A stretch of DNA of 64,000 nt from a virus. Where the stretch lies: IMG/VR virus record IMGVR_UViG_3300023174_003694, positions 981-64,980 of that record; one strand, written 5' to 3'. The notes below the pieces were generated by a model. The model saw only the letters and a program-made list of their open reading frames with translations. It had not been told where the DNA came from and ran no database searches. Below are positions 15,911-33,636 of this stretch, in pieces. A program made the translations under genes and the position numbers. How positions within the stretch are numbered: the first letter of the stretch is position 1; each line of letters begins with the position of its first letter.

Positions 15911-17293
15911 ATGTCAAAAAAGAAAAAGATACTACTACTATCGGATGACTTACGTATGCATTCAGGAATTGCAACTATGTCCCGTGAAATTGTCTTAAAC
16001 TCTGTAAAAGAATTTGATTGGATACAATTAGGCGCTGGAATTAATCATCCAGACGCTGGAAAGGTATTTGATTTATCAGCTGACACAATACAGCATACAG
16101 GAGTTGAAGACGCTAGCGTAAAAATTTATTGTTTCAATGATTATGGAAACCAAGAAGTATTAAGAGAATTAATACAACTTGAAAAGCCAGATGCTGTATT
16201 GCACTTTACAGATCCTAGATTTTGGGGTTGGTTATATGCAATGGAGCATGAATTGCGTCAAATGATGCCATTGATGTATTATACAATTTGGGACGATACT
16301 CCATATCCAATGTATAATCGACCATATTACGAATCATGTGATTTGTTAATGTGCATTTCAAAACAAACTCACAATATCGTTAAACAAGTATTAAAAGGAG
16401 CTGGTTATGAAGATTGGCAAATTACTTATACTCCACACGGTATTAATCACAAACAATTCTTCCCAATTACAGAATCTCATGAGCAATGGAATGAGTTTGC
16501 AGAATATAAAAAGAATATAATTCCTGAAGGCACTGAATTTACTATATTCCATAACGCTAGAAACATTAGAAGGAAGCATACTTCAGATTTAATATTAGCT
16601 TATAAAGAATTTTGTGATTCTCTGCCAAAAGAAAAAGCAGACAAATGTTTATTGCTGTTTCATACAGAACCAGCTGAAGAAGCAGGTACGGATTTAGTTG
16701 CAGTAATTAAAGAACTTTGTCCAATGTATAAAGTAAAGTTTACTCCTTCAAGAATAGTATCAACTAAAGAATTAAACTTCCTTTACAATATGTCAGACAT
16801 TTCTGCTAATATTGCTTCTAATGAAGGATTTGGATTAGGAACAGCTGAAGCTGTAATGGCAGGTACTCCTATAGTAGTTAATGTAACAGGAGGTCTTCAA
16901 GATCAATGTGGATTCAAGAAAGAAGACGGTACTTATTTAACTGCAGATGATTATTGTGATGAATTTCAAACTAATGCAGAAGGTAGATATAAAGATTGTG
17001 GTGAATGGGCTAAACCTACTTTTCCAGCAGTAAGAACTCTTCAAGGTTCTATTCCTACGCCATATATCTTCGATGACATTGCGTCTTATAAAGATACTGG
17101 ATTGAAATTTAAAGAATGGTATGATACTTCACATGAAGAAAGAGAACGAGTAGGTCAATTAGGTAGAGAGCATTACTTAAAACCAGAAGTTGGATTATCA
17201 GCTGAATCAATGGGTAACAATGTTATAGAGCATGTTAATACCTGTTTTGCAAATTGGAAACCTAGAAAACGAACAGAATTTATAAAAATATAG
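15911..17293 (+). CDS. glycosyltransferase, GT4-like
   Basis: N-terminal KILLLSDDLRMHSGIATM. C-terminal NEGFGLGTAEAVMAGTPIVVN is a GT4 EX7E-type block. Preceded by the ATATTTATATTAAATTAATAAA motif. Confidence 0.6.
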   Translation: MSKKKKILLLSDDLRMHSGIATMSREIVLNSVKEFDWIQLGAGINHPDAGKVFDLSADTIQHTGVEDASVKIYCFNDYGNQEVLRELIQLEKPDAVLHFTDPRFWGWLYAMEHELRQMMPLMYYTIWDDTPYPMYNRPYYESCDLLMCISKQTHNIVKQVLKGAGYEDWQITYTPHGINHKQFFPITESHEQWNEFAEYKKNIIPEGTEFTIFHNARNIRRKHTSDLILAYKEFCDSLPKEKADKCLLLFHTEPAEEAGTDLVAVIKELCPMYKVKFTPSRIVSTKELNFLYNMSDISANIASNEGFGLGTAEAVMAGTPIVVNVTGGLQDQCGFKKEDGTYLTADDYCDEFQTNAEGRYKDCGEWAKPTFPAVRTLQGSIPTPYIFDDIASYKDTGLKFKEWYDTSHEERERVGQLGREHYLKPEVGLSAESMGNNVIEHVNTCFANWKPRKRTEFIKI

Positions 17294-17295
17294 TT

Positions 17296-18606
17296 ATGAG
17301 TAAACCAGTATTAGTATTTCAAGCTCCGGTAGGTACTCGATCAGGTTATGGTGAAAGATCCCGTGATTTAGTTAGAGCTCTTATTGCATTAGACAAGTTT
17401 GATATTAAAATAGTAAGCACTCGTTGGGGAGCGACTCCAATGAATGCATTGACAGAATTAGACACTGACATTCTAGATAGAATATTAGTCGGTAATTTAT
17501 CACAGCAGCCAGAAATATTTATGCAAGTAACAGTGCCTAATGAATTTCAAAAAGTTGGAAAGTACAACATTGGAGTGACTGCAGGTATTGAAACTAATTT
17601 ATGTGATCATACTTGGTTAGAAGGCTGTAACAAAATGGATTTAGTTTTAGCTTCTTCTGAACACGCCAAAGCTGTATTTGAAGGAACTACCTTTGATAAG
17701 AAGGATAGCAGAACAGGTCAAATTGTAGAAACACTTAAATTAACTACTCCTGTAGAAGTTTTATTTGAAGGTATTAGATTAGATACTTTTCAAAAGAAAT
17801 ATACGGCAGAAGCTAATGTAGCTGAAATCTTTGATCAAATTCCTGAAGATTTTTGTTTTCTATTTGTAGGTCATTGGTTGCCAGGCGATTTAGGAGAAGA
17901 TAGAAAAAATGTAGGAGGTATGATTAAAACCTTTTATGAATCATTTAAAAATAAAGCTAAAGCGCCTGCCTTAGTATTAAAGACTTCAGGAGGTACGATA
18001 TCAGTATCTGATAAAATTGTTTTAGCAGAAAAAATAAATGCTATCAAAGCCACTATTGACTCTAAAAATTTACCTAATGTATATTTAGCGTATGGAGATT
18101 TCACAGATAAAGAACTTAATGATTTATACAATCATCCTAAAGTAAAAGCTCACGTTTCATTTACAAAAGGAGAAGGATTTGGTAGACCTTTAATTGAAGC
18201 TGCATTAACAGGTAAGCCTATTATCACTACGAATTGGTCAGGTCATTTAGATTTCTTAAAACCAGATTCGTCAGTGTTACTAAATGGTACTATGACAAGA
18301 GTTCATCATTCAGCTGCATGGAAAGGAGTTTTAAATTTAGAATCTGAATGGTTTACTGTAGATTATGGGCAAGCGTCTGCATATATGAAAGACGTGTTTA
18401 AAGAATATAAAAAGTATTTAGAAAAATCTAGAAAGACTTATCATCATATTAAAACTAATTTTTCTTTTGAAGCTATGACTGAAAAAGTAGGAGCTATTTT
18501 AGATTCTAGACTTCCTGAATTTCCAAAGCAAGTTCAGCTAAAACTACCTCAATTGAAAAAAATTGAATTACCTAAACTTAAAAAAGTTGAGCCAGTTGAA
18601 AATTAG
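17296..18606 (+). CDS. glycosyltransferase, GT4-like
   Basis: GEGFGRPLIEAALTGKPIITTN matches the GT4 EX7E motif. Confidence 0.6.
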   Translation: MSKPVLVFQAPVGTRSGYGERSRDLVRALIALDKFDIKIVSTRWGATPMNALTELDTDILDRILVGNLSQQPEIFMQVTVPNEFQKVGKYNIGVTAGIETNLCDHTWLEGCNKMDLVLASSEHAKAVFEGTTFDKKDSRTGQIVETLKLTTPVEVLFEGIRLDTFQKKYTAEANVAEIFDQIPEDFCFLFVGHWLPGDLGEDRKNVGGMIKTFYESFKNKAKAPALVLKTSGGTISVSDKIVLAEKINAIKATIDSKNLPNVYLAYGDFTDKELNDLYNHPKVKAHVSFTKGEGFGRPLIEAALTGKPIITTNWSGHLDFLKPDSSVLLNGTMTRVHHSAAWKGVLNLESEWFTVDYGQASAYMKDVFKEYKKYLEKSRKTYHHIKTNFSFEAMTEKVGAILDSRLPEFPKQVQLKLPQLKKIELPKLKKVEPVEN

Positions 18607-19231
18607 TTACGCGATAACAGTATGTAATGAAATAGAAGAGATCAAGAAATTGGTCTCTTTTATGTTATCTACTAAAAGAAATCAAGATGAAATAGTAATT
18701 CAACAAGATGAATTAACTAACCCTTCAATGGATACAGTAGCAGTACAAAATTATATTAATGATTTAATATTTGAAGATAAAATTAAATTTGTGAGCTGTG
18801 CATTAAATAATGACTTCGCTGCATTTAAAAATAACTTAACTGACAATTGTAGTGGAGATTACATTTTTCAAATAGATGCTGATGAAATGCCTAGCGAAGA
18901 ATTAATTGCTAACATTCCTTATATTTTAGAAGTAAATAGAGATGTAGATGTATTTCTTGTACCAAGAATCAATACGGTAGAAGGACTTACTCACGACCAT
19001 ATCCGACAATGGAGATGGAATGTAAACGAGAAAGGCTGGGTGAACTTTCCAGACTATCAATGGAGAATCTATAGAAATGCTCCTAGCATAAAATGGAAGA
19101 ATAAAGTTCATGAAGTAATTCAAGGGCATAAAACCTCCACGCTACTTCCAGCAGAAGAATCATATTGTCTGTATCATCCAAAAACAATTGATAGACAAGA
19201 AAAACAAAACAACTATTATGACACACTCTAG
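18563..19231 (+). CDS. glycosyltransferase family 2 (start overlaps upstream gene; ATG 18563 or TTG ~18590)
   Basis: ISYAITVCNEIEEI is the GT2 N-terminal block. QIDADEMP is a DxD motif. Confidence 0.55.
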   Translation: MNYLNLKKLSQLKISYAITVCNEIEEIKKLVSFMLSTKRNQDEIVIQQDELTNPSMDTVAVQNYINDLIFEDKIKFVSCALNNDFAAFKNNLTDNCSGDYIFQIDADEMPSEELIANIPYILEVNRDVDVFLVPRINTVEGLTHDHIRQWRWNVNEKGWVNFPDYQWRIYRNAPSIKWKNKVHEVIQGHKTSTLLPAEESYCLYHPKTIDRQEKQNNYYDTL

Positions 19232-20075
19232 TCCACTAACTCATTGTATTTCTACCTACAATAACCTACCATACTTAAAGTTAGCAGTAGAGTCAGTAAG
19301 GAAGAACTCTTTTTATAAAGACGCTCCTTTTATAATTCACGCAGAAAATTGCACAGATGGTACTAATGAATGGCTAGCTGAAAATGCAGAAACATATAAT
19401 ATTACATATTACATAGATACTCACTCTGAAGCTACTAAAGGAATTGGGGGCGGAATGAATTTTTGTGCTGATAAAGTAGAAACTGAATACATCAATTTCC
19501 TTCATTCAGATTTTTATGTAACTAAGGATTGGGATATAGAATTACTAAAAATTCATGAAAAGTATCCTGAAGAAACCCTATGGGTCAATTCATATAGAAT
19601 AGAACCTAATATGTTTAATTCTCCTCAAAGATACGGTACGCTATTAATAGATAAAGATATTTTTGGATGTTATCATGATAATTTTTTAGCTCAAGCTCTA
19701 GAGAATTGGATTGAAGAGTTTAAAGAAATAAATGACTATTTTGAAATTCCAAAAGGAGAAGGAGTTTCGGGTTTAGTAAAGAAATCTGTATGGGATGAAG
19801 TAGGAGGAAACGATCCAAGATTCGCACCAACATCTTGGGATGATATGGATTTATTCTTAAGAATGTTAAATCATGGAGTAAGATTTGTACTTCCATTTTC
19901 ATCTATAGTATGGCACTTTGGAGCAAGAGGTTCGCACAGATTAGAAGAAAATGACGGTCAGTCATCTCAAAGACAAAAAGACGCAGAACAAAAAAATGTA
20001 ATGAAATGGTTGGATAAATGGAAAGAAATGCCTATATTTAACGAGTTCGGAATGATACAACAATTTAAGCAATGA
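19188..20075 (+). CDS. glycosyltransferase family 2 (alternative start ATG 19218)
   Basis: HCISTYNNLPYLKLAVESV is the GT2 N-terminal block. FLHSDF is DxD-like. Confidence 0.5.
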   Translation: MIDKKNKTTIMTHSSPLTHCISTYNNLPYLKLAVESVRKNSFYKDAPFIIHAENCTDGTNEWLAENAETYNITYYIDTHSEATKGIGGGMNFCADKVETEYINFLHSDFYVTKDWDIELLKIHEKYPEETLWVNSYRIEPNMFNSPQRYGTLLIDKDIFGCYHDNFLAQALENWIEEFKEINDYFEIPKGEGVSGLVKKSVWDEVGGNDPRFAPTSWDDMDLFLRMLNHGVRFVLPFSSIVWHFGARGSHRLEENDGQSSQRQKDAEQKNVMKWLDKWKEMPIFNEFGMIQQFKQ

Positions 20076-20620
20076 TAAACGAAACAGAATTAAACTTAAT
20101 AGATCTCTCTAATAATGCACATCTAATTAATGAAGATGAGTATAGAAATTATTATCTAGGAAATCCAGGACAGGAACATTATAAATTATTAGCATATTAT
20201 AGCACACAATTTAATGATTCTGTTTTATTGGACATAGGCACGTATAAAGGATGTTCAGCTCTAGCGCTAGCTCACAATCCAACTAATCAAGTAAAATCCT
20301 TTGACATTAATTTTGGACTTAGAAATATTTCAGATTATCCAGATAATATAGAATTCATAGTTGATAATATTATTAATAAAGAATATGAATCTTTAATATT
20401 ATCAAGTAAGTTTATTATATTAGATACAGACCACCTAGGTGAATTTGAACATGAATTTTATAAACATTTAAAAACTATAGGATATAAAGGAATCCTATTA
20501 TTAGATGATATTTATCTAAATCATCAAATGACGGAATTTTGGAATTTTATCACAGACGAAAAACATGATATCAGTAATATAGGCCACCATTCAGGCACAG
20601 GCTTAGTAATTTTAAAATAA
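20072..20620 (+). CDS. class I SAM-dependent methyltransferase-like (CmcI/TylF family)
   Basis: LLDIGTYKGCSALALA resembles the Rossmann SAM motif I (LEIGTxxGxSA). LLDDIYL is acidic motif-like. Confidence 0.45.
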   Translation: MINETELNLIDLSNNAHLINEDEYRNYYLGNPGQEHYKLLAYYSTQFNDSVLLDIGTYKGCSALALAHNPTNQVKSFDINFGLRNISDYPDNIEFIVDNIINKEYESLILSSKFIILDTDHLGEFEHEFYKHLKTIGYKGILLLDDIYLNHQMTEFWNFITDEKHDISNIGHHSGTGLVILK

Positions 20621-20626
20621 AAACAA

Positions 20627-21184
20627 ATGGATCATTTTTTAAAAGTAGACGGAGTAATTGCAGCACAGACTCCTAAAATAGAACCTGCATTTAATTCAAT
20701 ACTAAATGATTTTTCTACAATTGTAGAAATAGGATTTCACAGAGGTGCACTATCTCTTTGGTTACATAGAAATAAAAAAAATACAACTAAATTAGTTTGT
20801 TATGATATTACTTTTCAACCTAAAGAAATTAATAATGATGCTATAGATTTTCGTCAAGGCGATTGTTTTGATCAACAAATTATGAACGAGATTAAAGCAT
20901 TAATACAAGCTCCAGGTAAAACGTTATTGTTATGTGACGGAGGTCATAAAGAAAAAGAATTTGAAGTATATGCACCTTTCCTTAAACAAGGAGATGTAAT
21001 TATGTGCCATGATTATGCTCATGATGAAGCTGACTATGCAGCAGTTATGGAAGCTATAGGATGGAAAACAGCTGCTGAATCAAGTTATGTAAATATTGCT
21101 CAAGCAGTTAATGATAACAATTTAGAGCCTTACAATTACGACATGTTTAAAAACGCACTTTGGGGTTCTTTTATTAAAAAATAA
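20627..21184 (+). CDS. class I SAM-dependent methyltransferase-like (CmcI/TylF macrocin-O-methyltransferase family)
   Basis: VEIGFHRGALSLW is motif I. LLLCDGGHKE matches the family's DGDH metal/substrate block. Confidence 0.5.
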   Translation: MDHFLKVDGVIAAQTPKIEPAFNSILNDFSTIVEIGFHRGALSLWLHRNKKNTTKLVCYDITFQPKEINNDAIDFRQGDCFDQQIMNEIKALIQAPGKTLLLCDGGHKEKEFEVYAPFLKQGDVIMCHDYAHDEADYAAVMEAIGWKTAAESSYVNIAQAVNDNNLEPYNYDMFKNALWGSFIKK

Positions 21185-21943
21185 ATGGAAACTAAATTAA
21201 ATAAACTAGCAGTAGTAATATGCTATTGTAGTAATGATCATAGATTCATAGAAAAGTGTCTAGACCAAGCTTTATTGATCAGTGATAATGTTATAGTGCC
21301 GATAAGTGACCATCTTTTTGGAGGAGATCCTGAAGATATAGAATCTATTGAAATTTTAGCTTCTAAATATCCGCAAGTTAACTTTTCTATATTTGAATGG
21401 CATACTGGAAAGCATCCTAGGTACTGGCACAATATGTCTAGAATATTAGGAAATTCTTTAGTTTCTGATGAATGTGAATGGGTACTTTTTTTAGATGCGG
21501 ATGAAATATTAGAAGCTGATTTATTTAATAAATTTGTTAATAGCAATACTTTTGAATCGTATGATACGTATAAATTAGCTACCTATTGGTATTTTAGAGA
21601 CCCTATATATCAATCTAAGTCTTTTGAATGCGCTCCTGTATTAATAAGAAAGCATTTAATTAATATCAATCCAAATGATGTTCATTGTGAAAGAGAGCAA
21701 ATGTTTGAGTATCTTAATGTGCCTAAACAATTTTTAGTATTGCAAGACGATAAACCTATGATACATCATTTTTCGTGGGTTCGTACTAAAGAAGAAATGT
21801 TGAATAAAGTAAAAAATTGGGGTCATACGAGTGACACTAATTGGAAAGCTTTAGTTGAAGAAGAATTTAGTAGACCGTTTAATGGGACTGATTTTATACA
21901 TAATTACGAATACAATATTGTAGAAAATAAATATAATATATAA
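21185..21943 (+). CDS. glycosyltransferase family 2-like
   Basis: KLAVVICYCSNDHRFIEKCL is the GT2 N-terminal block. FLDADEIL is DxD. Confidence 0.45.
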   Translation: METKLNKLAVVICYCSNDHRFIEKCLDQALLISDNVIVPISDHLFGGDPEDIESIEILASKYPQVNFSIFEWHTGKHPRYWHNMSRILGNSLVSDECEWVLFLDADEILEADLFNKFVNSNTFESYDTYKLATYWYFRDPIYQSKSFECAPVLIRKHLININPNDVHCEREQMFEYLNVPKQFLVLQDDKPMIHHFSWVRTKEEMLNKVKNWGHTSDTNWKALVEEEFSRPFNGTDFIHNYEYNIVENKYNI

Positions 21944-22581
21944 TGGCAAACGGAATTTATAAAATTACAGAAGATTTTGAAAAAGCGTTAGCAGAATATA
22001 CCGGAGCTCCGTACGTAGTGACTGTTGACAATCAATCAAATGCATTGTTTTTATCTTTAATGTATGAAAAGGTTAAAGGCAAAGAAATTACAATACCATC
22101 TCGAACTTATCCTTCTGTACCGTGTGAGATTATTCATGCCGGAGCTAAAGTTAAATTCTCTCCTGTAGATGGTAAAACCATAAAAGGTGCATATCAATTA
22201 GCTCCTACTAATGTATGGGACTCTGCGTTATGCTTTACTTCAAATATGTATAAACCAGGAACTCATATGTGTATTTCATTTACAGGTCCTTATAAACATT
22301 TTAAATTATCTAAAGGAGGAGCTATATTAACTGACAACCACGATGCATATCTTTGGTTTAAACGAGCAAGATATTCTGGAAGAAGAGAATGTTCTTATCA
22401 TGATGATAATTTAGATATGTTAGGTTGGAACTTTTACATGATGCCTGAGTTAGCAGCTAGAGGTCTTTTACTTATGAATCAATTTTATAACGGAGAAGGT
22501 AAACCAAAGCACAATGAAGATTTAGAATTGCCTTATCCTGATTTATCTAAATTCAAAGTATATACTGAAGCAAATAGATAA
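21943..22581 (+). CDS. DegT/DnrJ/EryC1-family sugar aminotransferase, unusually short (212 aa)
   Basis: FEKALAEYTGAPYVVTVDNQSNALFLSL matches the DegT N-terminal block. SFTGPYKHFKLSKGGAILTDN...ARYSG aligns with the PLP-lysine region of PglE (SYNGNKIITTSGGGMLI...ARFYS). Lacks ~150 aa versus canonical members. Confidence 0.55.
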   Translation: MANGIYKITEDFEKALAEYTGAPYVVTVDNQSNALFLSLMYEKVKGKEITIPSRTYPSVPCEIIHAGAKVKFSPVDGKTIKGAYQLAPTNVWDSALCFTSNMYKPGTHMCISFTGPYKHFKLSKGGAILTDNHDAYLWFKRARYSGRRECSYHDDNLDMLGWNFYMMPELAARGLLLMNQFYNGEGKPKHNEDLELPYPDLSKFKVYTEANR

Positions 22582-23246
22582 TGAAAAATATAGTATTGAT
22601 TGGAGGAGGTAACCAAGCTCATTATACAATAGATATAATTGAAAAAGAAGGTAAATACCGAATTGTAGGTATAATTGATTCTATTCAAGATGTCGGTGCT
22701 GATAGATTTGGATATCCAATTTTAGGTCGTCAAGAAGATATTAAAGAAATAATAGATAAATACAAAATTACCGGAGGACTCATAACTATTGGAGACAATT
22801 GGTCTAGGTACTATGTATCTAAACAAATTAAAAAATTAGTTCCTGAATTTGTATTTGTTAATGCAATTCACCCATCTGTTATAATAGGTAACAATGTAAA
22901 ATTAGGAGTAGGTATTACTGTCATGGCAGGATGTATATTCAATCCAAAAGCAATTATAGGAGATTTTACTTTTTTTGCTACAGGAGCTCAGATAGAACAT
23001 GATTGTATAATTGAAGATTATGCTAGCATATCAGCTGGTTCAATAACTGGAGGATATGTTAAGTTAGGTAAATTTTCAGCAATAACGTTAGGAGCTACTA
23101 TTTTTGATAGAGTAGAAATAGGAGAGAATACAGTAATAGGTGCTGGTAGTTTAGTAACTAAGTCATTACCTGACAATGTATTAGTATATGGCAACCCAGC
23201 AAAAATTATTAGGAATCGCGAAAAAGGTGAAAAATTTTTAAAATGA
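22581..23246 (+). CDS. PglD/NeuD-family sugar N-acetyltransferase (left-handed beta-helix)
   Basis: N-terminal MKNIVLIGGGNQAHYTIDII Rossmann-like domain, then hexapeptide repeats ([LIV]G..) and C-terminal VLVYGNPAKII. Confidence 0.65.
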   Translation: MKNIVLIGGGNQAHYTIDIIEKEGKYRIVGIIDSIQDVGADRFGYPILGRQEDIKEIIDKYKITGGLITIGDNWSRYYVSKQIKKLVPEFVFVNAIHPSVIIGNNVKLGVGITVMAGCIFNPKAIIGDFTFFATGAQIEHDCIIEDYASISAGSITGGYVKLGKFSAITLGATIFDRVEIGENTVIGAGSLVTKSLPDNVLVYGNPAKIIRNREKGEKFLK

Positions 23247-24028
23247 TAACACAAGAAGTTTCAGAATTAAAAAATAATGGGTATGTAATTCTTAAAGAAA
23301 GAATATCATATGAATTATTAAATAAGCTTATCACTGCTGTCGATAAAGCATTTATAGAACATAAAAAAATTCAAATTGAAAATAACAGTGATATTAAATC
23401 TGACGGAGTTGCATTGCATGCTTTATTAAGTGATAATACATTCATTGAACTTCTGCAACAATTACTTGATAAAGGATTTATTCAAGAATTACAAGATTGT
23501 TACTTTGATAGCAAGTGTATATTAAATTCATTAAGCGCATTAAATAACTTACCTAATCAACCTAATTTTTCAGCAGTAGTGCACAGAGATCTTAGGTTTT
23601 ATTCTGGAGACTTTCCAATGATGTTAAATTGTCTGTTAATGCTAGATGATTTTACAATTGAAAATGGAGGTACTTACTTATTACCGAAATCTCATTTAGA
23701 TGAGAGAAAACCATCCGACGAAGAATTTTTTAATAATGCTATTCAAGCTACTGGTAAAAAAGGAGATATTTTAATATTCAATGCCAATGTATGGCACGCA
23801 GCCGCTCCGAACACTACACAAGAAGGTAGACGAGCTATTCCAATTACAATTAGCAAACCATTCATGAAGCAGTTATTAGATTATCCTAGAGCTTTGGGAT
23901 ATGACAAAATAAATACATTCAGTGAGGAATTACAGGAACTATTAGGATATCATTCTAGAGTTCCAGCTTCGTTAGTTGAATGGTATCAGCCGAAAGAAAA
24001 TCGTTTTTATAAAAAAAATCAAGACTAA
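23243..24028 (+). CDS. PhyH-family Fe(II)/2-oxoglutarate dioxygenase
   Basis: HRD...H facial triad candidates: VVHRDLRF and NVWHAAAPN. 261 aa. Confidence 0.45.
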   Translation: MITQEVSELKNNGYVILKERISYELLNKLITAVDKAFIEHKKIQIENNSDIKSDGVALHALLSDNTFIELLQQLLDKGFIQELQDCYFDSKCILNSLSALNNLPNQPNFSAVVHRDLRFYSGDFPMMLNCLLMLDDFTIENGGTYLLPKSHLDERKPSDEEFFNNAIQATGKKGDILIFNANVWHAAAPNTTQEGRRAIPITISKPFMKQLLDYPRALGYDKINTFSEELQELLGYHSRVPASLVEWYQPKENRFYKKNQD

Positions 24029-25433: not shown

Positions 25434-26052
25434 TTTAGCAGAAAAATACGGAACTGATAAAGGACCTAATGCGCATTTGTATACCAGTAAATACAGTATG
25501 TATTTAGAGTCGTATAGAGATATTGAATTTAATTTATTAGAGATTGGAGTCTTTGATGGAGCGTCTGTAAAAATGTGGAAAGAGTATTTTCCTAAAGCTA
25601 CTATAGTAGCAATTGACATAGATCCTAGATGTAAAGAATTTGAAGAAGACAGAATACATATTCATATTGGAGATCAAACTGACATTAAATTTTTAAATGA
25701 TGTAGCTAATACTTATGGTCATTTTGAAGTAATATTAGATGACGGAGGCCATAGTTGGAAACAACAAATTGTTTCATATGAAACTTTATTTCCTAGATTA
25801 ACGCCAGGAGGTTTGTATTTTTTAGAAGATATGCATACATCATATGTGCCTCAAAGTAGATGGGCAGATCATCATATTACCGGAGTTAATTATTTTAAAA
25901 ATTTAGTTGATAAAGTAAATCTTAATGGCAAAAGCTTTTGTGGTTATTCTGAAATTAACGGGCAGTTTTTAGATTATGATGAACGTAATATAGATTATGT
26001 ACACTTTTATAAAAGTATGTTAGCAATAGGAAAACGACAAACTAGTTTATGA
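25408..26052 (+). CDS. class I SAM-dependent methyltransferase-like (CmcI/TylF family)
   Basis: LLEIGVFDGASVKMW is motif I. VAIDIDP is motif II. ILDDGGHSW is the DGxH block. Confidence 0.55.
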   Translation: MEKVMMLDSLAEKYGTDKGPNAHLYTSKYSMYLESYRDIEFNLLEIGVFDGASVKMWKEYFPKATIVAIDIDPRCKEFEEDRIHIHIGDQTDIKFLNDVANTYGHFEVILDDGGHSWKQQIVSYETLFPRLTPGGLYFLEDMHTSYVPQSRWADHHITGVNYFKNLVDKVNLNGKSFCGYSEINGQFLDYDERNIDYVHFYKSMLAIGKRQTSL

Positions 26053-26858
26053 TATCATGCAATTTCAATGGAAGGTTAGGTAATAACTTATTTCAAATAG
26101 CTACGATTGCCTCTATTGCAAATCAATTAGGAGTTGAATTTACGGTTCCTGAATTGACCTATGCTGGTCATAGAGGTGATATTCCTGTCGACTTAAGTAT
26201 ATTTGATTATAAATTTAATATAGGTAAGTTAGAATCTCCTATTGAATATAACGAACCATCTTTTGAGTATGCTAAAATAGAAGGCACTGACAATTTAAAC
26301 ATATCCGGATTTTTTCAGTCATGGAAATATTTTGAAGATATTAAAGATTTATTAATTAATAAGTATTTTAAACCTTCTACGGAAATTTCTAATATACTAT
26401 CTGAATACTATATATCCGAAAACTCTTTGGGAATTTCAGTAAGAAGAGGTGATTATCTTATGTTGCAACATAACCATTGTGTGCTAACTGCAGATTATTA
26501 TCAAGATGTTATTAATAAACATTTTAAAAATAATATTGATCAAATTTATATTTTTTCTGATGATATTGAATGGTGCAAATCTGTGTTTGGCGATCAAGTT
26601 AATTATGTTGAAAGTTCAATTGGGGTGCAGTTATTTCTTATGAGTAAAATGAAACATTTAATAATGTCTAATAGCACATTTGCTTGGTGGGGAGCATACT
26701 TAAATCAAAATAACGGAATTATTGTTGCACCGACACCATGGTTTGGGCCAAATAATGAACACATAAACACTAATGATTTATATTATCCTTCTTGGATAAA
26801 ATTTAATCATATAATACAACAACAACAATATTCAGTAACTCCAAATATGTACAATTAA
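26049..26858 (+). CDS. GT11-family alpha-1,2-fucosyltransferase-like glycosyltransferase
   Basis: NGRLGNNLFQIATIA matches the GT11 GGLGNQMFQYA N-terminal motif. SVRRGDYL matches GT11 HVRRGDY. Confidence 0.65.
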   Translation: MISCNFNGRLGNNLFQIATIASIANQLGVEFTVPELTYAGHRGDIPVDLSIFDYKFNIGKLESPIEYNEPSFEYAKIEGTDNLNISGFFQSWKYFEDIKDLLINKYFKPSTEISNILSEYYISENSLGISVRRGDYLMLQHNHCVLTADYYQDVINKHFKNNIDQIYIFSDDIEWCKSVFGDQVNYVESSIGVQLFLMSKMKHLIMSNSTFAWWGAYLNQNNGIIVAPTPWFGPNNEHINTNDLYYPSWIKFNHIIQQQQYSVTPNMYN

Positions 26859-27724
26859 TGCACATACTATATCAAATGCACGTAACTTGGTTTGAAACTG
26901 AAATGGCTCTAGAGTCTATACAATCTCTTAAAGAAGCTATTCAGAATACAAACTTAGAAGTAAAAGTTAAATTATGTTTTAATAAACAAACTCGGTTTGA
27001 TACTCCAATTAATAAAAGTATTGACGAAATGTTTGATAGCCTTTTAAAAGATGATTTAGTATCACAGTCTGAAATAACATGGAAGACTGATGAAGACGAT
27101 TTTTACAATGTAGGCGATTGGCGTCGAGAATGTTATGATGCTAATAATATTACTATTTGGGGTGAGGCGGATTGTTTAGTACCTAATACATATTTTGGTT
27201 ATATAGAAAGTATATTCAGTGCAAATCAAACGTATCCATTTATAGTTACTATTAAACAAAAGAAAATGTGGGATACATCTTGGACTCCTACAGAACACGA
27301 AGCGTTTCAGCAATTTAGTATAGAGCAAGTTCGATCAATAAATAATAAATTTGTAACAGGAGAAGGTTCACTATCTATAGAAGAATTAAATTCTTTTAAT
27401 GATTCATTTAGTATGATGCATAGCATAACTTCAAGTGATTATTATAAAGGCGACGGCGCGTTAGTATGTTTAAGTCCAAATATGCCAACACCTTTTATTG
27501 ACCCTGAACTTCATATGTGCGGCGAAGATTCATATTTCTTTACTTATTGCCAACTTAAACAAGTGCCTTTATATAATATTGCATATTACTTGAAAGGTCA
27601 TAATACAGGCCATCCTTTGAAAAGAACTAATCACTCTAGAAATGAAACTCAACATAAAGAGTTTGCAGAGTTTGATCAAAGTATGAGAGTAGTAGCTGCG
27701 AATAGTTTTAGAAAATTAGTATGA
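26858..27724 (+). CDS. hypothetical protein
   Basis: 288-aa ORF inside the glycan island. No motif recognised. Confidence 0.3.
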   Translation: MHILYQMHVTWFETEMALESIQSLKEAIQNTNLEVKVKLCFNKQTRFDTPINKSIDEMFDSLLKDDLVSQSEITWKTDEDDFYNVGDWRRECYDANNITIWGEADCLVPNTYFGYIESIFSANQTYPFIVTIKQKKMWDTSWTPTEHEAFQQFSIEQVRSINNKFVTGEGSLSIEELNSFNDSFSMMHSITSSDYYKGDGALVCLSPNMPTPFIDPELHMCGEDSYFFTYCQLKQVPLYNIAYYLKGHNTGHPLKRTNHSRNETQHKEFAEFDQSMRVVAANSFRKLV

Positions 27725-28689
27725 TAATAACTGCATGTCCTTTAAGAATTTCTTTAGTAGGAGGCTCTACAGATCATCCTAAATTTTTAGAAAAATACAA
27801 TACTGGGTCTGTAATTAGCTTTGCATCTAATTTACATACTTACATTACACTTCATCAAGATATTTTTGGAGCAACTTCATTAGACAAAAAATACATTATT
27901 AATTATTCTAAACGAGAATCTGTTAATAATATAGATGACATTGAAAATGAATTAGTGCGAAATTGTTTTAAACATTTAGATGTAGAGCATCTTAATTGTT
28001 TTATGACTTCTGACGTATTTTCTTCCGGGTCAGGATTAGCATCTTCGTCAGCATATTTATTAGCTTTGATTAAATCAATTTATGAACTTCGAGGTAAGCA
28101 CATTACAGAATTTGAAGTTTGTAAATTAGCAGAAGAAATAGAAAAAACATTTAATCCTTTAGTAGGGCAACAGGATTTTTATGGGTCATTAGGAGGATTA
28201 AAAAAAATTAAATTTTATAAAGACCAAGATCCAGAAATTAGATACCTAAGCGCTAATATATTTGAACAGATGGACTTGTATTTAGTGTATACGGGAGTCT
28301 TACGCAACTCTACGACAGTATTAGAAAGCCTAGATGTAGATAAATCAATTCCATTAATTAAGGATGTAGAAGATTTAGAAATTGCAATTAATACTAATGA
28401 TTTAGATTTGTTTCATTCTGTTATTAATCGCACTTGGATAAACAAAAAAGCAACTTCAAAATATATTTGTGAGAACAAAGCGCTAGTAGATTTAGATAAT
28501 AAATTAATAAACGATTCAAATGTTCTATCTCATAAATTGTTAGGAGCTGGTAATGGAGGTTATTTTTTAATCTTCACAAACAAAGGAAAAGAATCTATCA
28601 TAAGGAATTTATATATTAATGTAAATAAAATTCACATTTCAGATGTTGGATTAAACACGACTAACTTATATGATACTAAATACGTATAA
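27721..28689 (+). CDS. GHMP-family sugar kinase (heptose-7-phosphate kinase HddA / fucokinase-like)
   Basis: CPLRISLVGGSTDHP is the N-terminal block. SSGSGLASSSA is the GHMP ATP-binding motif PxGSGLGSSAA. Confidence 0.7.
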   Translation: MIITACPLRISLVGGSTDHPKFLEKYNTGSVISFASNLHTYITLHQDIFGATSLDKKYIINYSKRESVNNIDDIENELVRNCFKHLDVEHLNCFMTSDVFSSGSGLASSSAYLLALIKSIYELRGKHITEFEVCKLAEEIEKTFNPLVGQQDFYGSLGGLKKIKFYKDQDPEIRYLSANIFEQMDLYLVYTGVLRNSTTVLESLDVDKSIPLIKDVEDLEIAINTNDLDLFHSVINRTWINKKATSKYICENKALVDLDNKLINDSNVLSHKLLGAGNGGYFLIFTNKGKESIIRNLYINVNKIHISDVGLNTTNLYDTKYV

Positions 28690-29167
28690 ACATTGTTTAG
28701 ATAGAATATCTCAGGATGATATAGATAAATTAAAATCTATTATAGATAGCTATCAAGATATTATAATTTTAGGAAATGGAGGTAGCAATGCAATTAGCTG
28801 TCACATTGCAGAAGATTATACAAAGGCACTAGGTAAACGAGCTTTATGTTTTGGAGACTCGGCTAGAATGAGTTGTTATGCAAATGATTATGGATGGGAC
28901 AATGCTTATACAAAATTTATAGAACATTTTGCTGTAAAAAATACTTTAGTTATTTTAATTTCTTCTTCTGGAAATTCACAAAACATATTAAACGCTGCTG
29001 AATATTGTTTAGGTAAACATCCTATAATAACATTGTCAGGATTTAGTGAAACTAATAAATTAAATATTAGATATTCTAAAGAAGCTTTAATTAATTTTTA
29101 TGTAAGCAGTACAGATTACGGAATAGTAGAATGCCTTCATGAATTAATATTACATTCTATTATATGA
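28670..29167 (+). CDS. SIS-domain sugar phosphate isomerase (GmhA-like)
   Basis: IIILGNGGSNAISCHIAEDY resembles the GmhA GNGGSAADAQHFAAEL block. 165 aa. Confidence 0.6.
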   Translation: MILNTYKHCLDRISQDDIDKLKSIIDSYQDIIILGNGGSNAISCHIAEDYTKALGKRALCFGDSARMSCYANDYGWDNAYTKFIEHFAVKNTLVILISSSGNSQNILNAAEYCLGKHPIITLSGFSETNKLNIRYSKEALINFYVSSTDYGIVECLHELILHSII

Positions 29168-29481
29168 TATACTGTTTTGATTTAGATAATACTTTATGCA
29201 CTACCCTAGGCAATGATTATGAAAAATCAGAGCCAATATCTAATATGATTGTAAAGGTAAATGAATTATATGATGCTGGTCATACAATATTAATTTATAC
29301 AGCTCGTGGAATGTCTACTTATAAAGGTGATGTGGATGCTGTGTATGATGCATTTTATTTATTTACTAAAAACCAAATTAAATCTTGGGGTATTAAGCAT
29401 CATAAATTACAATTAGGTAAGCCTTCATATGATGTATTCATAGATGATAAGAATATGTTAATTAATGATTTTTTAGGTTAA
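29164..29481 (+). CDS. HAD-superfamily phosphatase (GmhB-like, short)
   Basis: MIYCFDLDNTLC is HAD motif I (DxDxT). IYTARG is motif II-like. FIDDK gives motif IV Asp. 105 aa. Confidence 0.5.
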   Translation: MIYCFDLDNTLCTTLGNDYEKSEPISNMIVKVNELYDAGHTILIYTARGMSTYKGDVDAVYDAFYLFTKNQIKSWGIKHHKLQLGKPSYDVFIDDKNMLINDFLG

Positions 29482-29519
29482 TCTAAAAGAATTTCTTATA
29501 TTAAATAAAATTATAAAGA

Positions 29520-30710
29520 ATGGAAAAAATAACATTTTGTATTCCTAGCAAATCTAATTTGCGTTATTTAAAAACATGTATTCCTTCAATTAGAAAGAAT
29601 GCGTTTAGACCTGATCACGATATTATTGTCTTTGTAGATTCAGATGAAGACGGTACTGTAGAGTGGTTAGAGCAAGTTAAAGATGAATACAATCTTTCTT
29701 ATTACGTTAATCCAAATTTAGGAAAATATCTATTTGGAATTGGAAAGGCATATGATTATTGTATTGAAAAATCTACAACAGATATTTTTATGATTTTTCA
29801 TGCGGATATGATGTTAGGTAAGAATGCAGATAAATTAGCATATGACCATTTAGTATATAAAACTGTGGTTTCTGCTACTAGAGTTGAACCGCCTTTACAT
29901 CCTAATAATGGAGAAAAGATTCTAATGGATTTTGGAATGTGGCCAGAGGAATTTAAAGAAGATGAGTTTGATGTATTTGTAGATACATTCAAAGAAGATA
30001 CTAAAGTAACTGACGGTGTATTTGCTCCTTGGATGATGTACAAAAAAGAATTTTTAGCAATAGGAGGTCATGATGAAAGAATGCATTCTTGCAGAGAAGA
30101 TTCTGACGTATTTAATAGATTAGAGTTGGCAGGATTTACATTTGTGCAACCTTGGAATTCTATGGTATATCATTTAACAGGTAGAGGTGCTGGAAGCTTT
30201 GGAGGGGATGAAGCGAGACACGCAGCTTGGCAAAATGATATGATTAGATCTACTAAAGAATTTATTCGCAAATGGGGAAGTAATGTTAAACATACAGCAT
30301 TAATGCATCCAATAATTATTCCAAAATATAATATTGCGTTTGTAGTTGATAATTGCACATTACAAGCTATCGAAGCTTTAGAGCCATGGTGTGATAGATT
30401 ATATATTAAAGGGTCTTTAGATTCTATAGCACATTTACAAGCTGACTATATTACCAAAGAAGCTGAGCATACTTCATTTAGCTTAGTTAAAAGGGTGTTA
30501 AGTGATATGCACAATGATGCTGATGGAGAAAATGATATTGTAGTTCGAATAGATGGTAGAACATTTGACGGAGACGATTTTATTTACATTCAACAGTTAT
30601 CTGAAATAATTAAAGAGTCTGGAACTCCTAATGCAACTTTTGAATTAGGTCATTTACTAATTACAATAAACTCAATGAATGAACTTCAAAACAATTTAAT
30701 CAATGTCTAA
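29520..30710 (+). CDS. glycosyltransferase family 2-like
   Basis: KITFCIPSKSNLRYLKTCIPSI is the GT2 N-terminal block. FVDSDEDG is DxD. Upstream CTTATATTAAATAAAA motif. Confidence 0.45.
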   Translation: MEKITFCIPSKSNLRYLKTCIPSIRKNAFRPDHDIIVFVDSDEDGTVEWLEQVKDEYNLSYYVNPNLGKYLFGIGKAYDYCIEKSTTDIFMIFHADMMLGKNADKLAYDHLVYKTVVSATRVEPPLHPNNGEKILMDFGMWPEEFKEDEFDVFVDTFKEDTKVTDGVFAPWMMYKKEFLAIGGHDERMHSCREDSDVFNRLELAGFTFVQPWNSMVYHLTGRGAGSFGGDEARHAAWQNDMIRSTKEFIRKWGSNVKHTALMHPIIIPKYNIAFVVDNCTLQAIEALEPWCDRLYIKGSLDSIAHLQADYITKEAEHTSFSLVKRVLSDMHNDADGENDIVVRIDGRTFDGDDFIYIQQLSEIIKESGTPNATFELGHLLITINSMNELQNNLINV

Positions 30711-31623
30711 AAGAATATTAGTTACGGGAGGGTTAGGCTTTGTAGGATCTAATTTAGTTGATATGTTAATTAGTCAAGGGCATCAAGTAGATGTAATTGA
30801 TAACTTATCTTCAGAGTCAAGTTCAAAAAAATATGCAAACCCAAAAGCAAATTATGAACTTAGAGATGTCAATGACATTTTACAAATTAAAAATTCAGTT
30901 GGAGTATTAGAAACTAGAACTCAATATGATGTAATTTATCATTTAGCAGCTGAAGCTAGAATTCAACCTTCTTTTGAAGATCCAATGAAATGGTTTCAAT
31001 CTAATATAATGGGCACTGCAGCTGTAATGGAATATGCAAGACTATCAAATTCAAAAGCTGTGGTATATGCAACGACTTCATCTAAAAACCATGGGTCTAA
31101 ATATATATCTCCTTACACTTATTCTAAAGTAGCTGGAGAAAATATATTAAGCACTTACAAATATTGTTATAAAATTAATTGCGCTTCAGCAACATTTTAT
31201 AATGTATATGGACCTAGAGAACCTGAAGTAGGAGAGTTTGCAACAGTAAGAGCAAAATTCCAAAGACAATTTGATAATAATGAACCTATGACTGTTGTAG
31301 GAGATGGTAATCAAACAAGAGACTTTACTCACGTAGATGATATTTGTCAAGGAATGATTGCAATTGCAGAACATTTATTAACCAAACCTCAGCACTCGAA
31401 AATTGTACAAAATTATGATTTAGGTAGAGGAGAGCCGATACCAATAATAGATGTTGCTTTGATGATTTGCAACTATGACCCTTCTAAAATTATGCATGTA
31501 CCTTTAAGAAAAAATGAAGGTAGAGATACTTTGTCATTGTGGCAAGATACACAAAGACAAATTGGTTGGAGAGCAACTAAAGATTTAAAAACATATATAA
31601 ACATAATCAACAATGGAGAATAA
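30703..31623 (+). CDS. NAD-dependent epimerase/dehydratase (extended SDR)
   Basis: ILVTGGLGFVGSNLV is the GxxGxxG Rossmann motif. YTYSK gives the YxxxK catalytic pair. Confidence 0.75.
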   Translation: MSKRILVTGGLGFVGSNLVDMLISQGHQVDVIDNLSSESSSKKYANPKANYELRDVNDILQIKNSVGVLETRTQYDVIYHLAAEARIQPSFEDPMKWFQSNIMGTAAVMEYARLSNSKAVVYATTSSKNHGSKYISPYTYSKVAGENILSTYKYCYKINCASATFYNVYGPREPEVGEFATVRAKFQRQFDNNEPMTVVGDGNQTRDFTHVDDICQGMIAIAEHLLTKPQHSKIVQNYDLGRGEPIPIIDVALMICNYDPSKIMHVPLRKNEGRDTLSLWQDTQRQIGWRATKDLKTYINIINNGE

Positions 31624-31921
31624 CAATTTTCATGATTTACGCAATACATATATTGACTTGCGTAACATGCCTTCAATCGAATTGTTAAATTTTGAAGGAC
31701 CTGTGCTAAAAGCAATTAAAGCTCCTTTTGGGTGTGTAGTAGTAGACCAATGGGACAAAACAGTTGCTATTTGTAATAAAGAACAGCTTCAAGATTTCCT
31801 TTCTGGAAAGACTGATATTACAGATTCCAATAACAAAATCTGGCACTATCCAGCAGAACATGAAGGAGCTAAGTCTAGAACCTCAAAATTAAATGCATTT
31901 ATTAATACAATGTCAATATGA
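31613..31921 (+). CDS. hypothetical protein
   Basis: 102-aa ORF. No motif. Confidence 0.3.
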   Translation: MENNNFHDLRNTYIDLRNMPSIELLNFEGPVLKAIKAPFGCVVVDQWDKTVAICNKEQLQDFLSGKTDITDSNNKIWHYPAEHEGAKSRTSKLNAFINTMSI

Positions 31922-32775
31922 AATCAAAATTAGGAGTAATTGGTCAAGGCTTTGTAGGAAATGCTGTGACTGAAGGAATGTCTCATTGTTATGAAATGAT
32001 AACGTATGACAAAGACCCAAATAAGAAATGTACAGAAAAATCACTATATGATGTGATTAATAAAACAGAAGTAGTATTTTTATGTGTACCTACTCCTATG
32101 TATAAATCAGGAGCTTGTGACTTGTCAATAGTACACAATGCAATGAAAGAAATTTCTGATTCATGTGAAGCATTGAAGAAACATGTTACTGTAGTTCTTA
32201 AATCTACAGTACCGCCAGGCGTCACTGAAACTCTTAATGAGTTGTATGGCAATCATATTGCTGTGGTATTCAACCCAGAATTCTTAACAGAAGCTAATGC
32301 AGTTGAAGATTATAAAAACCAAAATAGAATTATTGTAGGAGGCAATCGCCCAGAGTCTTCTCAAGTAAAACAAATATTTGCAAAAGCATTTCCTCAAGTT
32401 CCGATTATCAAAACATCTTCAACAATTGCAGAAATGGTTAAGTACGTAACTAATACGTTTTTAGCGACTAAAGTTTCATTTGCAAACGAAATGTATCAAA
32501 TTAGCCAAGCTCTAGATATTGATTATGACAAAGTAATTGAGTATGCGCGCTATGATGATAGATTAGGGCAATCACATTGGTCAGTGCCAGGCCCAGACGG
32601 AGATTTTGGATTTGGAGGTCACTGCTTTCCTAAAGATGTAGCAGCTTTAACTTATTTAGCCAAAGCATTAGGAGTAGATCCTATTATGCTAAATGGGACT
32701 GCATATAAAAATAATGATGTTCGAACTGACTTTGATTGGACTAAACAAATTGGGAGAGCAGTCTCTGAAGAATAA
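31918..32775 (+). CDS. UDP-glucose/GDP-mannose 6-dehydrogenase family protein, lacking the C-terminal UDP-binding domain
   Basis: LGVIGQGFVGNAV is the NAD-binding loop. NPEFLTEANAVEDY is the family signature NPEFLxEG. GGHCFPKD carries the catalytic Cys. Only 285 aa. Confidence 0.6.
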   Translation: MKSKLGVIGQGFVGNAVTEGMSHCYEMITYDKDPNKKCTEKSLYDVINKTEVVFLCVPTPMYKSGACDLSIVHNAMKEISDSCEALKKHVTVVLKSTVPPGVTETLNELYGNHIAVVFNPEFLTEANAVEDYKNQNRIIVGGNRPESSQVKQIFAKAFPQVPIIKTSSTIAEMVKYVTNTFLATKVSFANEMYQISQALDIDYDKVIEYARYDDRLGQSHWSVPGPDGDFGFGGHCFPKDVAALTYLAKALGVDPIMLNGTAYKNNDVRTDFDWTKQIGRAVSEE

Positions 32776-33517: not shown

Positions 33518-33636
33518 CATATTTATTAGTATAGCGCCAATAACTTTGTTAGTCTTGGGTCAATGCCCTTGAGTAGTATTAAGCTACGAAAAGATTAGCA
33601 AAATTAGATGTTTAACATTTATCAAAAATTAAAACT

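Follow-up and report, generated by a model that had tools for sequence, protein, structure and literature searches.

Clusters of genes for glycan synthesis have been described in T4-like phages since 2005. The cyanomyovirus P-SSM2 carries 24 "LPS" (lipopolysaccharide) genes in two clusters (PMC1079782), and a 15-gene P-SSM2 cluster described by Iyer et al. contains more than eight glycosyltransferase families and is polymorphic among related cyanophages (PMC7824862); S-SCSM2R encodes 13 glycosyltransferases and 22 cell-wall genes (PMC12801897), and 162 LPS-related proteins have been reported from pelagimyophages (PMC7029224). Here we describe a 64-kb stretch of viral DNA, positions 981 to 64,980 of the IMG/VR record IMGVR_UViG_3300023174_003694 (hereafter the window; about 31% GC, essentially all genes on the + strand), in which the block at 15911-32775, the island, is a phage-borne glycan-assembly locus of the kind already known from T4-like aquatic phages. 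An earlier note, made from the sequence alone, had judged such a repertoire typical of giant eukaryotic viruses and very unusual in a bacteriophage, and the latter judgment cannot be maintained given the clusters cited above, the GT11 homologues (33-38% identity to the island's enzyme) that occur in 103 phage records, mostly from cyanophages, and the homologous islands that the published genomes of Flavobacterium phage vB_FspM_immuto (hereafter immuto) and Microcystis phage Mel-JY01 already contain, without discussion there. To our knowledge, lytic marine phage clusters have carried the "LPS genes" label since 2005 and the target of glycosylation has never been shown experimentally.

Like the cyanomyoviruses P-SSM2, S-SCSM1, and S-SCSM2R and the pelagimyophages, the window phage is a lytic T4-related aquatic myovirus, and its island shares with the cyanomyovirus clusters the presence of nucleoside diphosphate (NDP)-sugar epimerases/dehydratases, aminotransferases, and many glycosyltransferases (theirs have up to 13, in 15-24 genes), as well as polymorphism between relatives. 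Unlike the cyanomyoviruses, it belongs to a separate clade as judged by the identity of its family B DNA polymerase (PolB), the nearest cultured PolB being that of Mel-JY01 (41%) and those of cyanophages reaching at most about 30-34%. The setting also differs from that in pelagimyophages, whose genes are concentrated in a tail-fibre "host recognition cluster" and also scattered, whereas here the genes are tied to the replication module and follow a PD-(D/E)XK nuclease. In a non-systematic search of the literature we did not find a clade-wide set of core enzymes, a defined replaceable cassette, or a late-type motif, the features set out below, described for the cyanophage clusters.

The island is located in the T4-like replication module of a phage genome (Table 1). 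The ORF (open reading frame) listing gave 22 tightly packed + strand ORFs, many of which overlap by 1-40 nt, and no credible minus-strand gene within 15911-32775; the co-orientation in the earlier claim of 25 co-oriented genes was correct, and the number was not. Comparison with related loci revealed a conserved frame around a 10.3-kb hypervariable cassette. The left part of the frame is a triad of glycosyltransferases (GT-B, GT-B, GT2; 15911-19231) and the right part consists of a GT2, a short-chain dehydrogenase/reductase (SDR), and a short UDP-glucose dehydrogenase-family enzyme (UGDH) at 29520-32775, while the cassette (19226-29518) encodes five further glycosyltransferases, three methyltransferases, and enzymes that activate and tailor sugars. 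By a tblastn matrix, among the 41 related IMG/VR loci with 5 kb or more of downstream sequence, the triad comes after the nuclease in 38; it does not in the three most distant relatives. Its identity is 46-53% where that of the nuclease is 40-48%, i.e., the triad is at least as conserved as the nuclease.

The limits of the cassette were defined by close relatives. Homology to IMGVR_UViG_3300012665_001356 (91% nucleotide identity) stops at 19225, the 3′ end of the third triad gene being the left recombination boundary, and resumes at 29519, which places the right boundary of the variable segment at 29518; in between, the window has 10.3 kb (15 genes) and its relative an unrelated 7.7 kb. A second close relative shares sequence to 20079 and thereafter only the GT2 at 24705-25414. 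This same gene (24693; genes are referred to by their start positions) has 89-90% nucleotide identity to contigs L008 and L077, the latter with a background of 70%; for the segment 24682-25289 the figures are 89% vs. 70%. Single cassette genes can thus be far more alike in distant phages than the rest of their genomes. The semi-conserved GT2 at the left edge of the cassette (19188), a paralog of the 29520 GT2 (28% identity), is 86-90% identical in L008 and L019 and absent from L007. Within approximately 6 kb past the triad, 36 loci encode 143 protein families, 80 of which occur in a single locus, and these are by Pfam mainly epimerases/dehydratases, GT2, several methyltransferase families, DegT, Hexapep, PhyH, Glyco_transf_7C, and NeuB. 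The most widespread family downstream of the triad is that of the 29520 GT2 (15 of the 36 loci), which is 85% identical in L085 and 46% identical to immuto gp169. The GC content of the cassette is 29.6%, vs. 32-33% in its flanks. Judged by these sequence comparisons, the cassette is exchanged between phages as modules, as occurs in bacterial O-antigen loci. The island resembles O-antigen and capsule loci in its enzyme families, its conserved flanks and replaceable lower-GC center, and the exchange of modules between lineages, and differs from them in that it has no initiating transferase, Wzx/Wzy, ABC transporter, chain-length regulator, or ligase, in that its products are soluble, and in that its carrier is a lytic phage.

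Two cultured phages have islands in the same position and with the same order (nuclease, GT-B, GT-B, GT2, variable set, GT2 of ~400 aa). In immuto, the nuclease gp183 is followed by the glycosyltransferases gp181, gp180, and gp178, which are 48, 53, and 53% identical, respectively, to the three triad proteins of the window; the second of these (17296) is also 48% identical to its Mel-JY01 counterpart. Both phages have their own sets of sugar enzymes behind the triad and the ~400-aa GT2 at the far end, and unlike the window island theirs are shorter (about 11 kb in immuto and 6.5 kb in Mel-JY01) and contain other cassettes. Another difference is that a family A polymerase takes the place of PolB in immuto. 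The studies of immuto that we located concern its 7-deazaguanine DNA and polymerase swapping, and the island is not among their topics. The first GT-B (15911) has at least 7,994 database homologs, the top 120 of which are 55-96% identical and reside on contigs of up to 221 kb. The locus is a hallmark of the Immutovirus-like clade of aquatic T4-related myoviruses, and in searchable papers we did not find this status, the exact frame-and-cassette structure, the two cryptic GT-A families, or the bracketing late-type motif.

In 185,579 species genomes, the core GT-B was identified only on 14 contigs (L097-L110) of metagenome-assembled genomes (MAGs) from mutually incongruent taxa. The order of the glycosyltransferases is the same in all 14, with the full triad in 12 and just the GT-B pair in L109 and L110, and those contigs that retain an upstream flank have the clamp-loader/nuclease/SLOG context. 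By these features they are mis-binned phage contigs in public genome bins. The labels of the 14 MAGs include Nisaea, Methanobacteriota, Pelagibacter, Saccharibacteria, Flavobacteriales, and Saprospiraceae, among others, and being mutually incongruent gave no hint as to the host. The same genomes were searched for signs of recent host capture of the GHMP kinase of the cassette, and no close relative was found. Neither the scan with this kinase nor that with the core GT-B supports the idea that the genes were captured from the host, although such scans depend on shared peptide words and would be compatible with an older capture.

We count ten glycosyltransferases in the island: seven recognized by Pfam, one via its homologs, and two cryptic GT-A folds by structure prediction. 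The earlier claim of about 11 was accurate as to the multi-glycosyltransferase nature of the island, and the count is ten, with two more GT-B genes (388-2829) upstream of the polymerase gene. The products of 15911, 17296, 18563, 19188, 24693, 29520, and 26049 reached the Pfam gathering score, in agreement with the families assigned to them previously, and those of 21185, 24028, 26858, and 31613 had no Pfam match. For 21185, homologs that carry PF00535 and an invariant D104, D106, and E107 (alignment A3; DxDE motif) support the suggestion that it is GT2-like. Structures of 24028 and 26858 were predicted from alignments of database homologs. The 24028 family, for which there is no Pfam model, comprises 1049 representative clusters at 50% identity and includes fusions to GT2 or Methyltransf_24. 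Its AF2 model (pLDDT 94.9, pTM 0.92) has a predicted GT-A fold with GnT-I (1fo8, TMq 0.60) as best Foldseek match and further matches to POMGNT1, SpsA, and TarP, consistent with its earlier listing as a possible glycosyltransferase; CMP-Kdo synthetases are also among the fold matches, though glycosyltransferases come first, and a role as sugar nucleotidyltransferase is conceivable but less probable. The 26858 protein, overlooked in the earlier list, had no Pfam, PHROG, or PDB sequence match and belongs to a small family (about 50 homologs) that likewise has no Pfam model; an identical copy is encoded on a contig of 120 kb. The top Foldseek matches of its AF2 model (pLDDT 94.9, pTM 0.92) are nearly all GT-A enzymes (E down to 5e-7), including KfiA, COLGALT1, mimivirus R699, and LARGE1. 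We also considered 26858 as the missing sugar nucleotidyltransferase and rejected this assignment, as glycosyltransferases make up nearly all of its best fold matches. The many GT-A enzymes matched by the cryptic folds include mimivirus R699 and chlorovirus hyaluronan synthase, and there is no specific sequence relationship to these giant-virus enzymes beyond the fold. Searches of PDB by phmmer with 21185, 24028, and 26858 returned only noise (fluorescent proteins, antibody chains, CaM kinase), and profile searches of PDB with A1 and A3 yielded nothing informative except a marginal match to GmaR at E 0.06.

The sugar-activating and tailoring enzymes were for the most part as had been proposed from the sequence. 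Two of the three CmcI/TylF-type methyltransferases are supported by Pfam, and the third, 20072, has a weak match (E 0.002) and is a paralog of 20627 at E 6e-5. Profile matches agree with the calls of a sugar aminotransferase, a PglD-type N-acetyltransferase (of the NeuD/PglB/VioB type by TIGR03570), a PhyH dioxygenase, and an SDR, with the qualification that the aminotransferase is short (212 aa). This "mini" DegT retains the PLP-lysine motif SFxxPYK (as SFTGPYK, aligning to PDB 7kz3) and is missing its C-terminal domain; it is 78% identical to immuto gp172 (L089 21495-22139; 212-214 aa), vs. 39-54% for the core genes, suggestive of either strong constraint or a recent exchange. The PDB matches of the SDR are spread over GalE, Pal, UXS, and RmlB and do not single out a substrate.

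The kinase/SIS/HAD trio, which recurs on the related phage contig L101, had been called heptose-type. The enzyme families are the right ones for the GDP-D-glycero-alpha-D-manno-heptose pathway, and the assignment held at this level and not at that of the equivalogs, as the scores are far below the equivalog cut-offs (Table 1) and no NTP_transferase match that could represent the sugar-1-phosphate nucleotidyltransferase (HddC) was found in the island or elsewhere in the window, of whose roughly 90 ORFs about 70 were scanned; the sugar can be named at the family level, as heptose-like. Similarly, the UGDH-like enzyme does belong to its family, with the catalytic GFGGHCFPKD retained and aligning to 3vtf, and is only 285 aa long, as the C-terminal nucleotide-sugar-binding domain is missing entirely and the N-terminal domain in part. 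The enzyme has the same length in a relative, where it is 92% conserved. The adjacent 102-aa ORF (31613) was considered as the missing C-terminal domain of this enzyme and rejected, as it has no Pfam match and is absent (homology gap 31624-31917) from IMGVR_UViG_3300012665_001356, which keeps the 285-aa enzyme.

The island is bracketed by copies of a strand-specific, intergenic, promoter-like motif, the 13-mer TATTTATATTAAA with the core 8-mer TATTTATA, also written TATTTATA(TTAAA). In the window, TATTTATATTAAA has seven matches with at most one mismatch, all of them on the + strand and intergenic, where 2.2 are expected and none of 100 shuffles reached seven. Between 15888 and 34457 there is no copy, the terminator scan found no + strand terminator-like site within the island, and a sigma-70 scan of the island found fewer promoter-like sites than in shuffles. 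The 8-mer at 401 lies 17 nt ahead of an in-frame ATG (418) of an upstream GT-B gene, and the motif is kept upstream of the GT-B gene in six relatives (L007, L008, L010, L011, L016, and L019). The genes at 34476, 46964, and 59990, which come after other copies of the motif, obtained no function from PHROG and Pfam scans, and the timing class of the motif was therefore deduced from immuto. In that complete genome, TATTTATA occurs 12-40 nt upstream of the genes for terminase, portal, sheath, tube, baseplate hub, tape measure, and tail spike and of the gp192-endolysin-holin cassette, does not occur upstream of the replication genes, and brackets the homologous island at 48955 and 59991, so that the two islands are alike in having TATTTATA on both sides. 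The gp192 ortholog in the window (43573) is also preceded by the motif, and in 80 structural-module loci of the clade TATTTATA is present 330 times on the coding strand vs. 88 times on the other. Asking whether an ORF starts within 60 nt after the motif did not discriminate, as the control strand also gave 61%, and strand bias and intergenic position were used instead. We infer that the motif is probably the late promoter of the clade and that the island and four downstream genes form one late transcription unit; the genes at 32775-34413 are conserved along with the right edge of the island in L085 and L086. In reverse complement, the motif corresponds to the T4 late -10 box TATAAATA, yet it sits on the coding strand.

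The best reading of the locus, in our opinion, is late cytoplasmic glycosylation of virion proteins, which we put forward tentatively and at somewhat less than an even chance. An oligosaccharide would be built in the cytoplasm of the infected cell, because all 22 island products are soluble: no 19-residue window with a Kyte-Doolittle mean of ≥1.6 was found in the island proteins, except at the Rossmann GxGxxG of the SDR, and by hydropathy and Pfam the island encodes no initiating phosphoglycosyl transferase, Wzx, Wzy, WaaL, or ABC transporter. Its likely sugars would be an N-acetylated amino-deoxyhexose, a uronic acid or pentose, and heptose-like and fucose-type residues, with O-methyl groups. 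The whole 18.5-kb unit would be transcribed from the late-type promoter together with the virion and lysis genes, the conserved triad would put the first sugars on an acceptor that the phage itself encodes, most likely a virion structural protein or several of them, and the variable enzymes would extend and decorate the chain, producing different surface glycans on near-identical phages. A phage-encoded acceptor is favored because of the absence of membrane proteins, the late-type motif, the absence of sugar-bearing nucleosides in immuto, and the presence of the triad in phages whose hosts, as recorded in GenBank, belong to the Bacteroidota (Flavobacterium) and the Cyanobacteria (Microcystis).

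There are parallels for such a process. Giant viruses glycosylate their virion proteins, and mimivirus makes amino-deoxy sugars by an aminotransferase and N-acetyltransferase route. Glycosylation of the capsid and tail tube of mycobacteriophages is a reported precedent among phages (Freeman et al., 2023). With the mycobacteriophage operons and the chlorovirus and mimivirus machinery the island has in common virus-encoded soluble glycosyltransferases and tailoring and methylating enzymes, and the cytoplasmic action on virion proteins that we propose; unlike the mycobacteriophage operons (2-4 genes), it has many more genes, is not embedded in a structural module, and is known from its genes alone.

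Several points weigh against glycosylation of the virion. Virion glycoproteins and their acceptor are hypothetical in this clade, and the island adjoins the replication module, whereas the mycobacteriophage genes lie within the structural module. The "late" label derives from the association of the motif with structural genes in a relative, and the 8-mer is AT-rich in a genome of 31% GC; late expression would also fit a modified cell surface or debris that spares progeny from adsorption. Peripheral glycosyltransferases free of transmembrane segments are the rule in bacterial O-antigen synthesis, and the absence of membrane proteins is therefore still compatible with host undecaprenyl-phosphate intermediates and host export. 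Finally, the sugars named are family-level guesses, given the low scores of the trio, the absence of a nucleotidyltransferase match, and the truncation of the aminotransferase and UGDH. A more specific proposal, that this abundant clade, widespread in the environment, glycosylates its own virions via a conserved three-enzyme attachment module and switches "phage serotypes" by cassette exchange between lineages, is conceivable and rather doubtful; if true, it would represent a viral counterpart of bacterial O-antigen variation and imply selection in nature on phage surface glycans, e.g., by host defenses, decoys, grazers, or competing phages.

Remodeling of the host envelope is the standing interpretation for the cyanomyovirus and pelagimyophage clusters (PMC1079782, PMC7029224, PMC7824862). 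Here, phage enzymes would make new NDP-sugars and attach or modify sugars on host undecaprenyl-linked O-antigen/capsule intermediates or the LPS core, for export by host flippases, polymerases, and ligases, with the purpose of blocking superinfection or keeping progeny off debris. GT2, GT4, GT11, DegT, NeuD, SDR, UGDH, and the heptose-type trio are all families of O-antigen/capsule loci, the strain-level replacement of the cassette and its low GC are as in bacterial O-antigen loci, and soluble glycosyltransferases are normal in that pathway. This is the main rival explanation and a serious one, which we nevertheless consider less probable than glycosylation of the virion, as the island is without an initiating transferase, flippase, polymerase, ligase, or transporter, and as the sharing of the motif with structural and lysis genes, rather than early genes, would leave little time for turnover of the surface. 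Moreover, phages with recorded hosts of different phyla and envelopes share the triad at 46-53% identity, and in the species genomes scanned it was found only on the mis-binned phage contigs, both of which argue for an acceptor borne by the phage.

A different cytoplasmic target or product, such as host or non-structural phage proteins (e.g., receptors or defense proteins, which would be inactivated), a soluble glycoconjugate, a glycolipid, or a natural product, seems to us improbable. PhyH, CmcI/TylF-type methyltransferases, DegT, and NeuD are also typical of natural-product sugar tailoring, and secondary-metabolite clusters have been predicted in cyanophages (Iyer et al., PMC7824862), but the island has no polyketide, non-ribosomal-peptide, or aglycone-forming genes, and with ten glycosyltransferases an oligosaccharide is implied, not a small molecule bearing sugars. 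Also in favor of this reading are a zinc-ribbon protein rich in S, T, and N (33637-34413), encoded in the promoter-to-promoter unit of the island, and a weak Pfam match to GT4-conflict; no specific host protein is indicated as a target.

The phage DNA itself had also been named as a possible target, i.e., glycans would be added to modified bases to counter restriction, as in the T-even phages and further viruses that glycosylate their DNA. The island adjoins the replication module and its T4 gp1-type dNMP kinase, members of the clade modify their DNA (7-deazaguanines in immuto), and multi-sugar DNA glycans made by viral glycosyltransferases have been reported (Pyle, 2024). This possibility was weakened considerably by the nucleosides of immuto, which carries a homologous island: Hutinet et al. 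found its DNA by LC-UV-MS (liquid chromatography with ultraviolet and mass spectrometric detection) to consist of dA, dC, dT, and fdPreQ1 replacing G, with no sugar-bearing nucleoside (PMC10516641). In addition, a scan of the larger ORFs of the window detected no hydroxymethylase of the thymidylate-synthase-like type, ten glycosyltransferases with methylation and N-acetylation are far beyond known DNA glycans, and the promoter-like motif is of the late type, all of which make a DNA target very improbable.

The earlier note had allowed that the island might be host DNA or a misassembly. However, the exact GT11 protein is present on nine contigs, the island with both flanks is found at 100% identity in ENA ERZ2680843 (63.6 kb) and at 97.9% in JGI 3300010160 (52 kb, another sample), an identical or near-identical island with the same flanks was also assembled in Logan SRR7812574, and the arrangement is common to dozens of IMG/VR contigs and two cultured phage genomes. 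The replication-module setting, the independent assemblies in several metagenomes, and the synteny lead us to conclude that the island is phage DNA and not a chimera. Despite bacterial-looking gene content and a mid-island GC dip, host DNA joined by misassembly or a prophage-flanking host locus can for practical purposes be dismissed, given identical junctions in independent assemblies from different samples, synteny in dozens of viral contigs and two cultured genomes, and the continuity of strand, gene packing, and promoter-like motif with the flanks. A megablast of the island against 50,697 phage records gave no match, relatives being found only at the protein level or in metagenomes, and a tRNA scan found none.

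The clade is abundant, with thousands of homologs of the core enzyme and at least 600 related capsid loci, and has a cultured member, immuto (propagated on Flavobacterium sp. LMO8), which makes the old open question of the target directly testable; as the chemistry of its DNA has already been analyzed, DNA is largely removed as a target. If virions are glycosylated, phage particles in water would bear strain-specific glycans, with consequences for adsorption, decoy binding, grazing, and host range, and if the host surface is remodeled instead, this would provide the first support for the old LPS hypothesis.

Table 1. Features of the window discussed in the text, in order of position except for those given without coordinates. 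aa, amino acids; bits are profile scores.
Feature	Position	Strand	Evidence or remark
GT-B glycosyltransferases (two), outside island	388-1782, 1813-2829	+	Pfam Glycos_transf_1; phrog_4356
TATTTATATTAAA, all copies	2859, 15875, 34458, 36469, 43498, 46941, 59924	+	8-mer also at 401, 48618
PolB	3587-6160	+	phrog_262, E 1e-178
GroEL-type chaperonin	8807-10420		upstream of island
Sliding clamp, two clamp-loader subunits, T4 gp1-type dNMP kinase, SLOG/DprA-like protein			upstream of island
PD-(D/E)XK nuclease	14295-15245		upstream of island
TATTTATATTAAA before island	15875-15887	+	36 nt upstream of first island ATG
Core glycosyltransferase 1, GT-B, GT4-like, 460 aa	15911-17293	+	Glycos_transf_1, 29 bits; phrog_2170
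Core glycosyltransferase 2, GT-B, 436 aa	17296-18606	+	Glycos_transf_1, 31 bits; phrog_2170
Core glycosyltransferase 3, GT2	18563-19231 (gene callers: start 18596)	+	Pfam Glycos_transf_2
GT2, semi-conserved	19188-20075	+	Pfam Glycos_transf_2, E 7e-13
Class I methyltransferases (two paralogs)	20072-20620, 20627-21184	+	Methyltransf_24/CmcI
Divergent GT2-like, 252 aa, DADE motif	21185-21943	+	PF00535 present in homologs (45-62% identity)
Short DegT-family aminotransferase, 212 aa	21943-22581	+	Pfam E 1e-15, profile positions 24-98 only
NeuD/PglD-type sugar N-acetyltransferase	22581-23246	+	TIGR03570, 173 bits vs. cut-off 160.8; PglD_N + Hexapep
PhyH-family 2OG/Fe(II) dioxygenase	23243-24028	+	Pfam E 2e-21
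Cryptic predicted GT-A-fold enzyme, 227 aa	24028-24711	+	motifs YxLENDYLH, LYDHxDKY (alignment A1)
GT2, mobile cassette gene	24693-25433	+	Pfam Glycos_transf_2
Methyltransferase	25408-26052	+	Methyltransf_24
GT11, alpha-1,2-fucosyltransferase family	26049-26858	+	Pfam Glyco_transf_11, E 3e-26
Cryptic predicted GT-A-fold glycosyltransferase, 288 aa	26858-27724	+	invariant W-G-E-x-D
GHMP kinase, HddA-like	27721-28689	+	NCBIfam HddA E 4e-22; 79 bits vs. cut-off 600
SIS isomerase, GmhA-like	28670-29167	+	NCBIfam GmhA E 2e-15; 57 bits vs. cut-off 209
HAD phosphatase, EcbF/BcbF-type	29164-29481	+	NCBIfam E 1e-12; 48 bits vs. cut-off 162
Distal conserved GT2, 396 aa	29520-30710	+	Pfam Glycos_transf_2
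Extended SDR NDP-sugar epimerase, dehydratase, or decarboxylase	30703-31623	+	Pfam Epimerase E 3e-42
102-aa ORF	31613-31921	+	no Pfam match; insertion/deletion vs. close relative
Short UDP-glucose/GDP-mannose dehydrogenase-family enzyme, 285 aa	31918-32775	+	Pfam N-terminal + central domains; TIGR03026, 215 bits
Genes after island, before next motif copy: 80 aa; 167 aa; 258 aa	32775-34413	+	sequence; zinc ribbon by Pfam
TATTTATATTAAA closing unit	34458-34470	+	next copy after 15875

Some other genes of the window and its relatives deserve mention. Downstream of the island, the 167-aa protein in 33014-34413 has a metalloprotease-type motif, HEIAH (HExxH), and the 258-aa protein (33637-34413) has a low-complexity middle rich in S, T, and N and a C-terminal zinc ribbon, and may serve as a substrate for glycosylation or in an accessory role. 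The 417-aa protein encoded between PolB and GroEL at 7546-8799, which is 77-98% conserved in relatives, has a weak Pfam match to queuine tRNA-ribosyltransferase (TGT, E 0.002) and is possibly a DpdA-like DNA transglycosylase; in immuto, all G is replaced with fdPreQ1 through DpdA3, and the immuto DpdA had no tblastn match in the window. Two genes are unusual cargo for a lytic phage, one (43781-44926) encoding a protein with two PAS sensor domains and no recognized output domain and the other (41923-42750) an SPFH/Band 7 protein. In the relative L019 (77% identity in the nuclease, about 81% in PolB), the PolB gene (72-2342) appears to be interrupted by an inserted ORF whose homolog in the window is the GIY-YIG endonuclease-like gene (2995-3570) just upstream of PolB. 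Finally, a 64-aa histone H1-like Hc1 protein (36539-36733, Pfam E 7e-13) is encoded 70 nt downstream of a motif copy and may be a late DNA-condensing protein.

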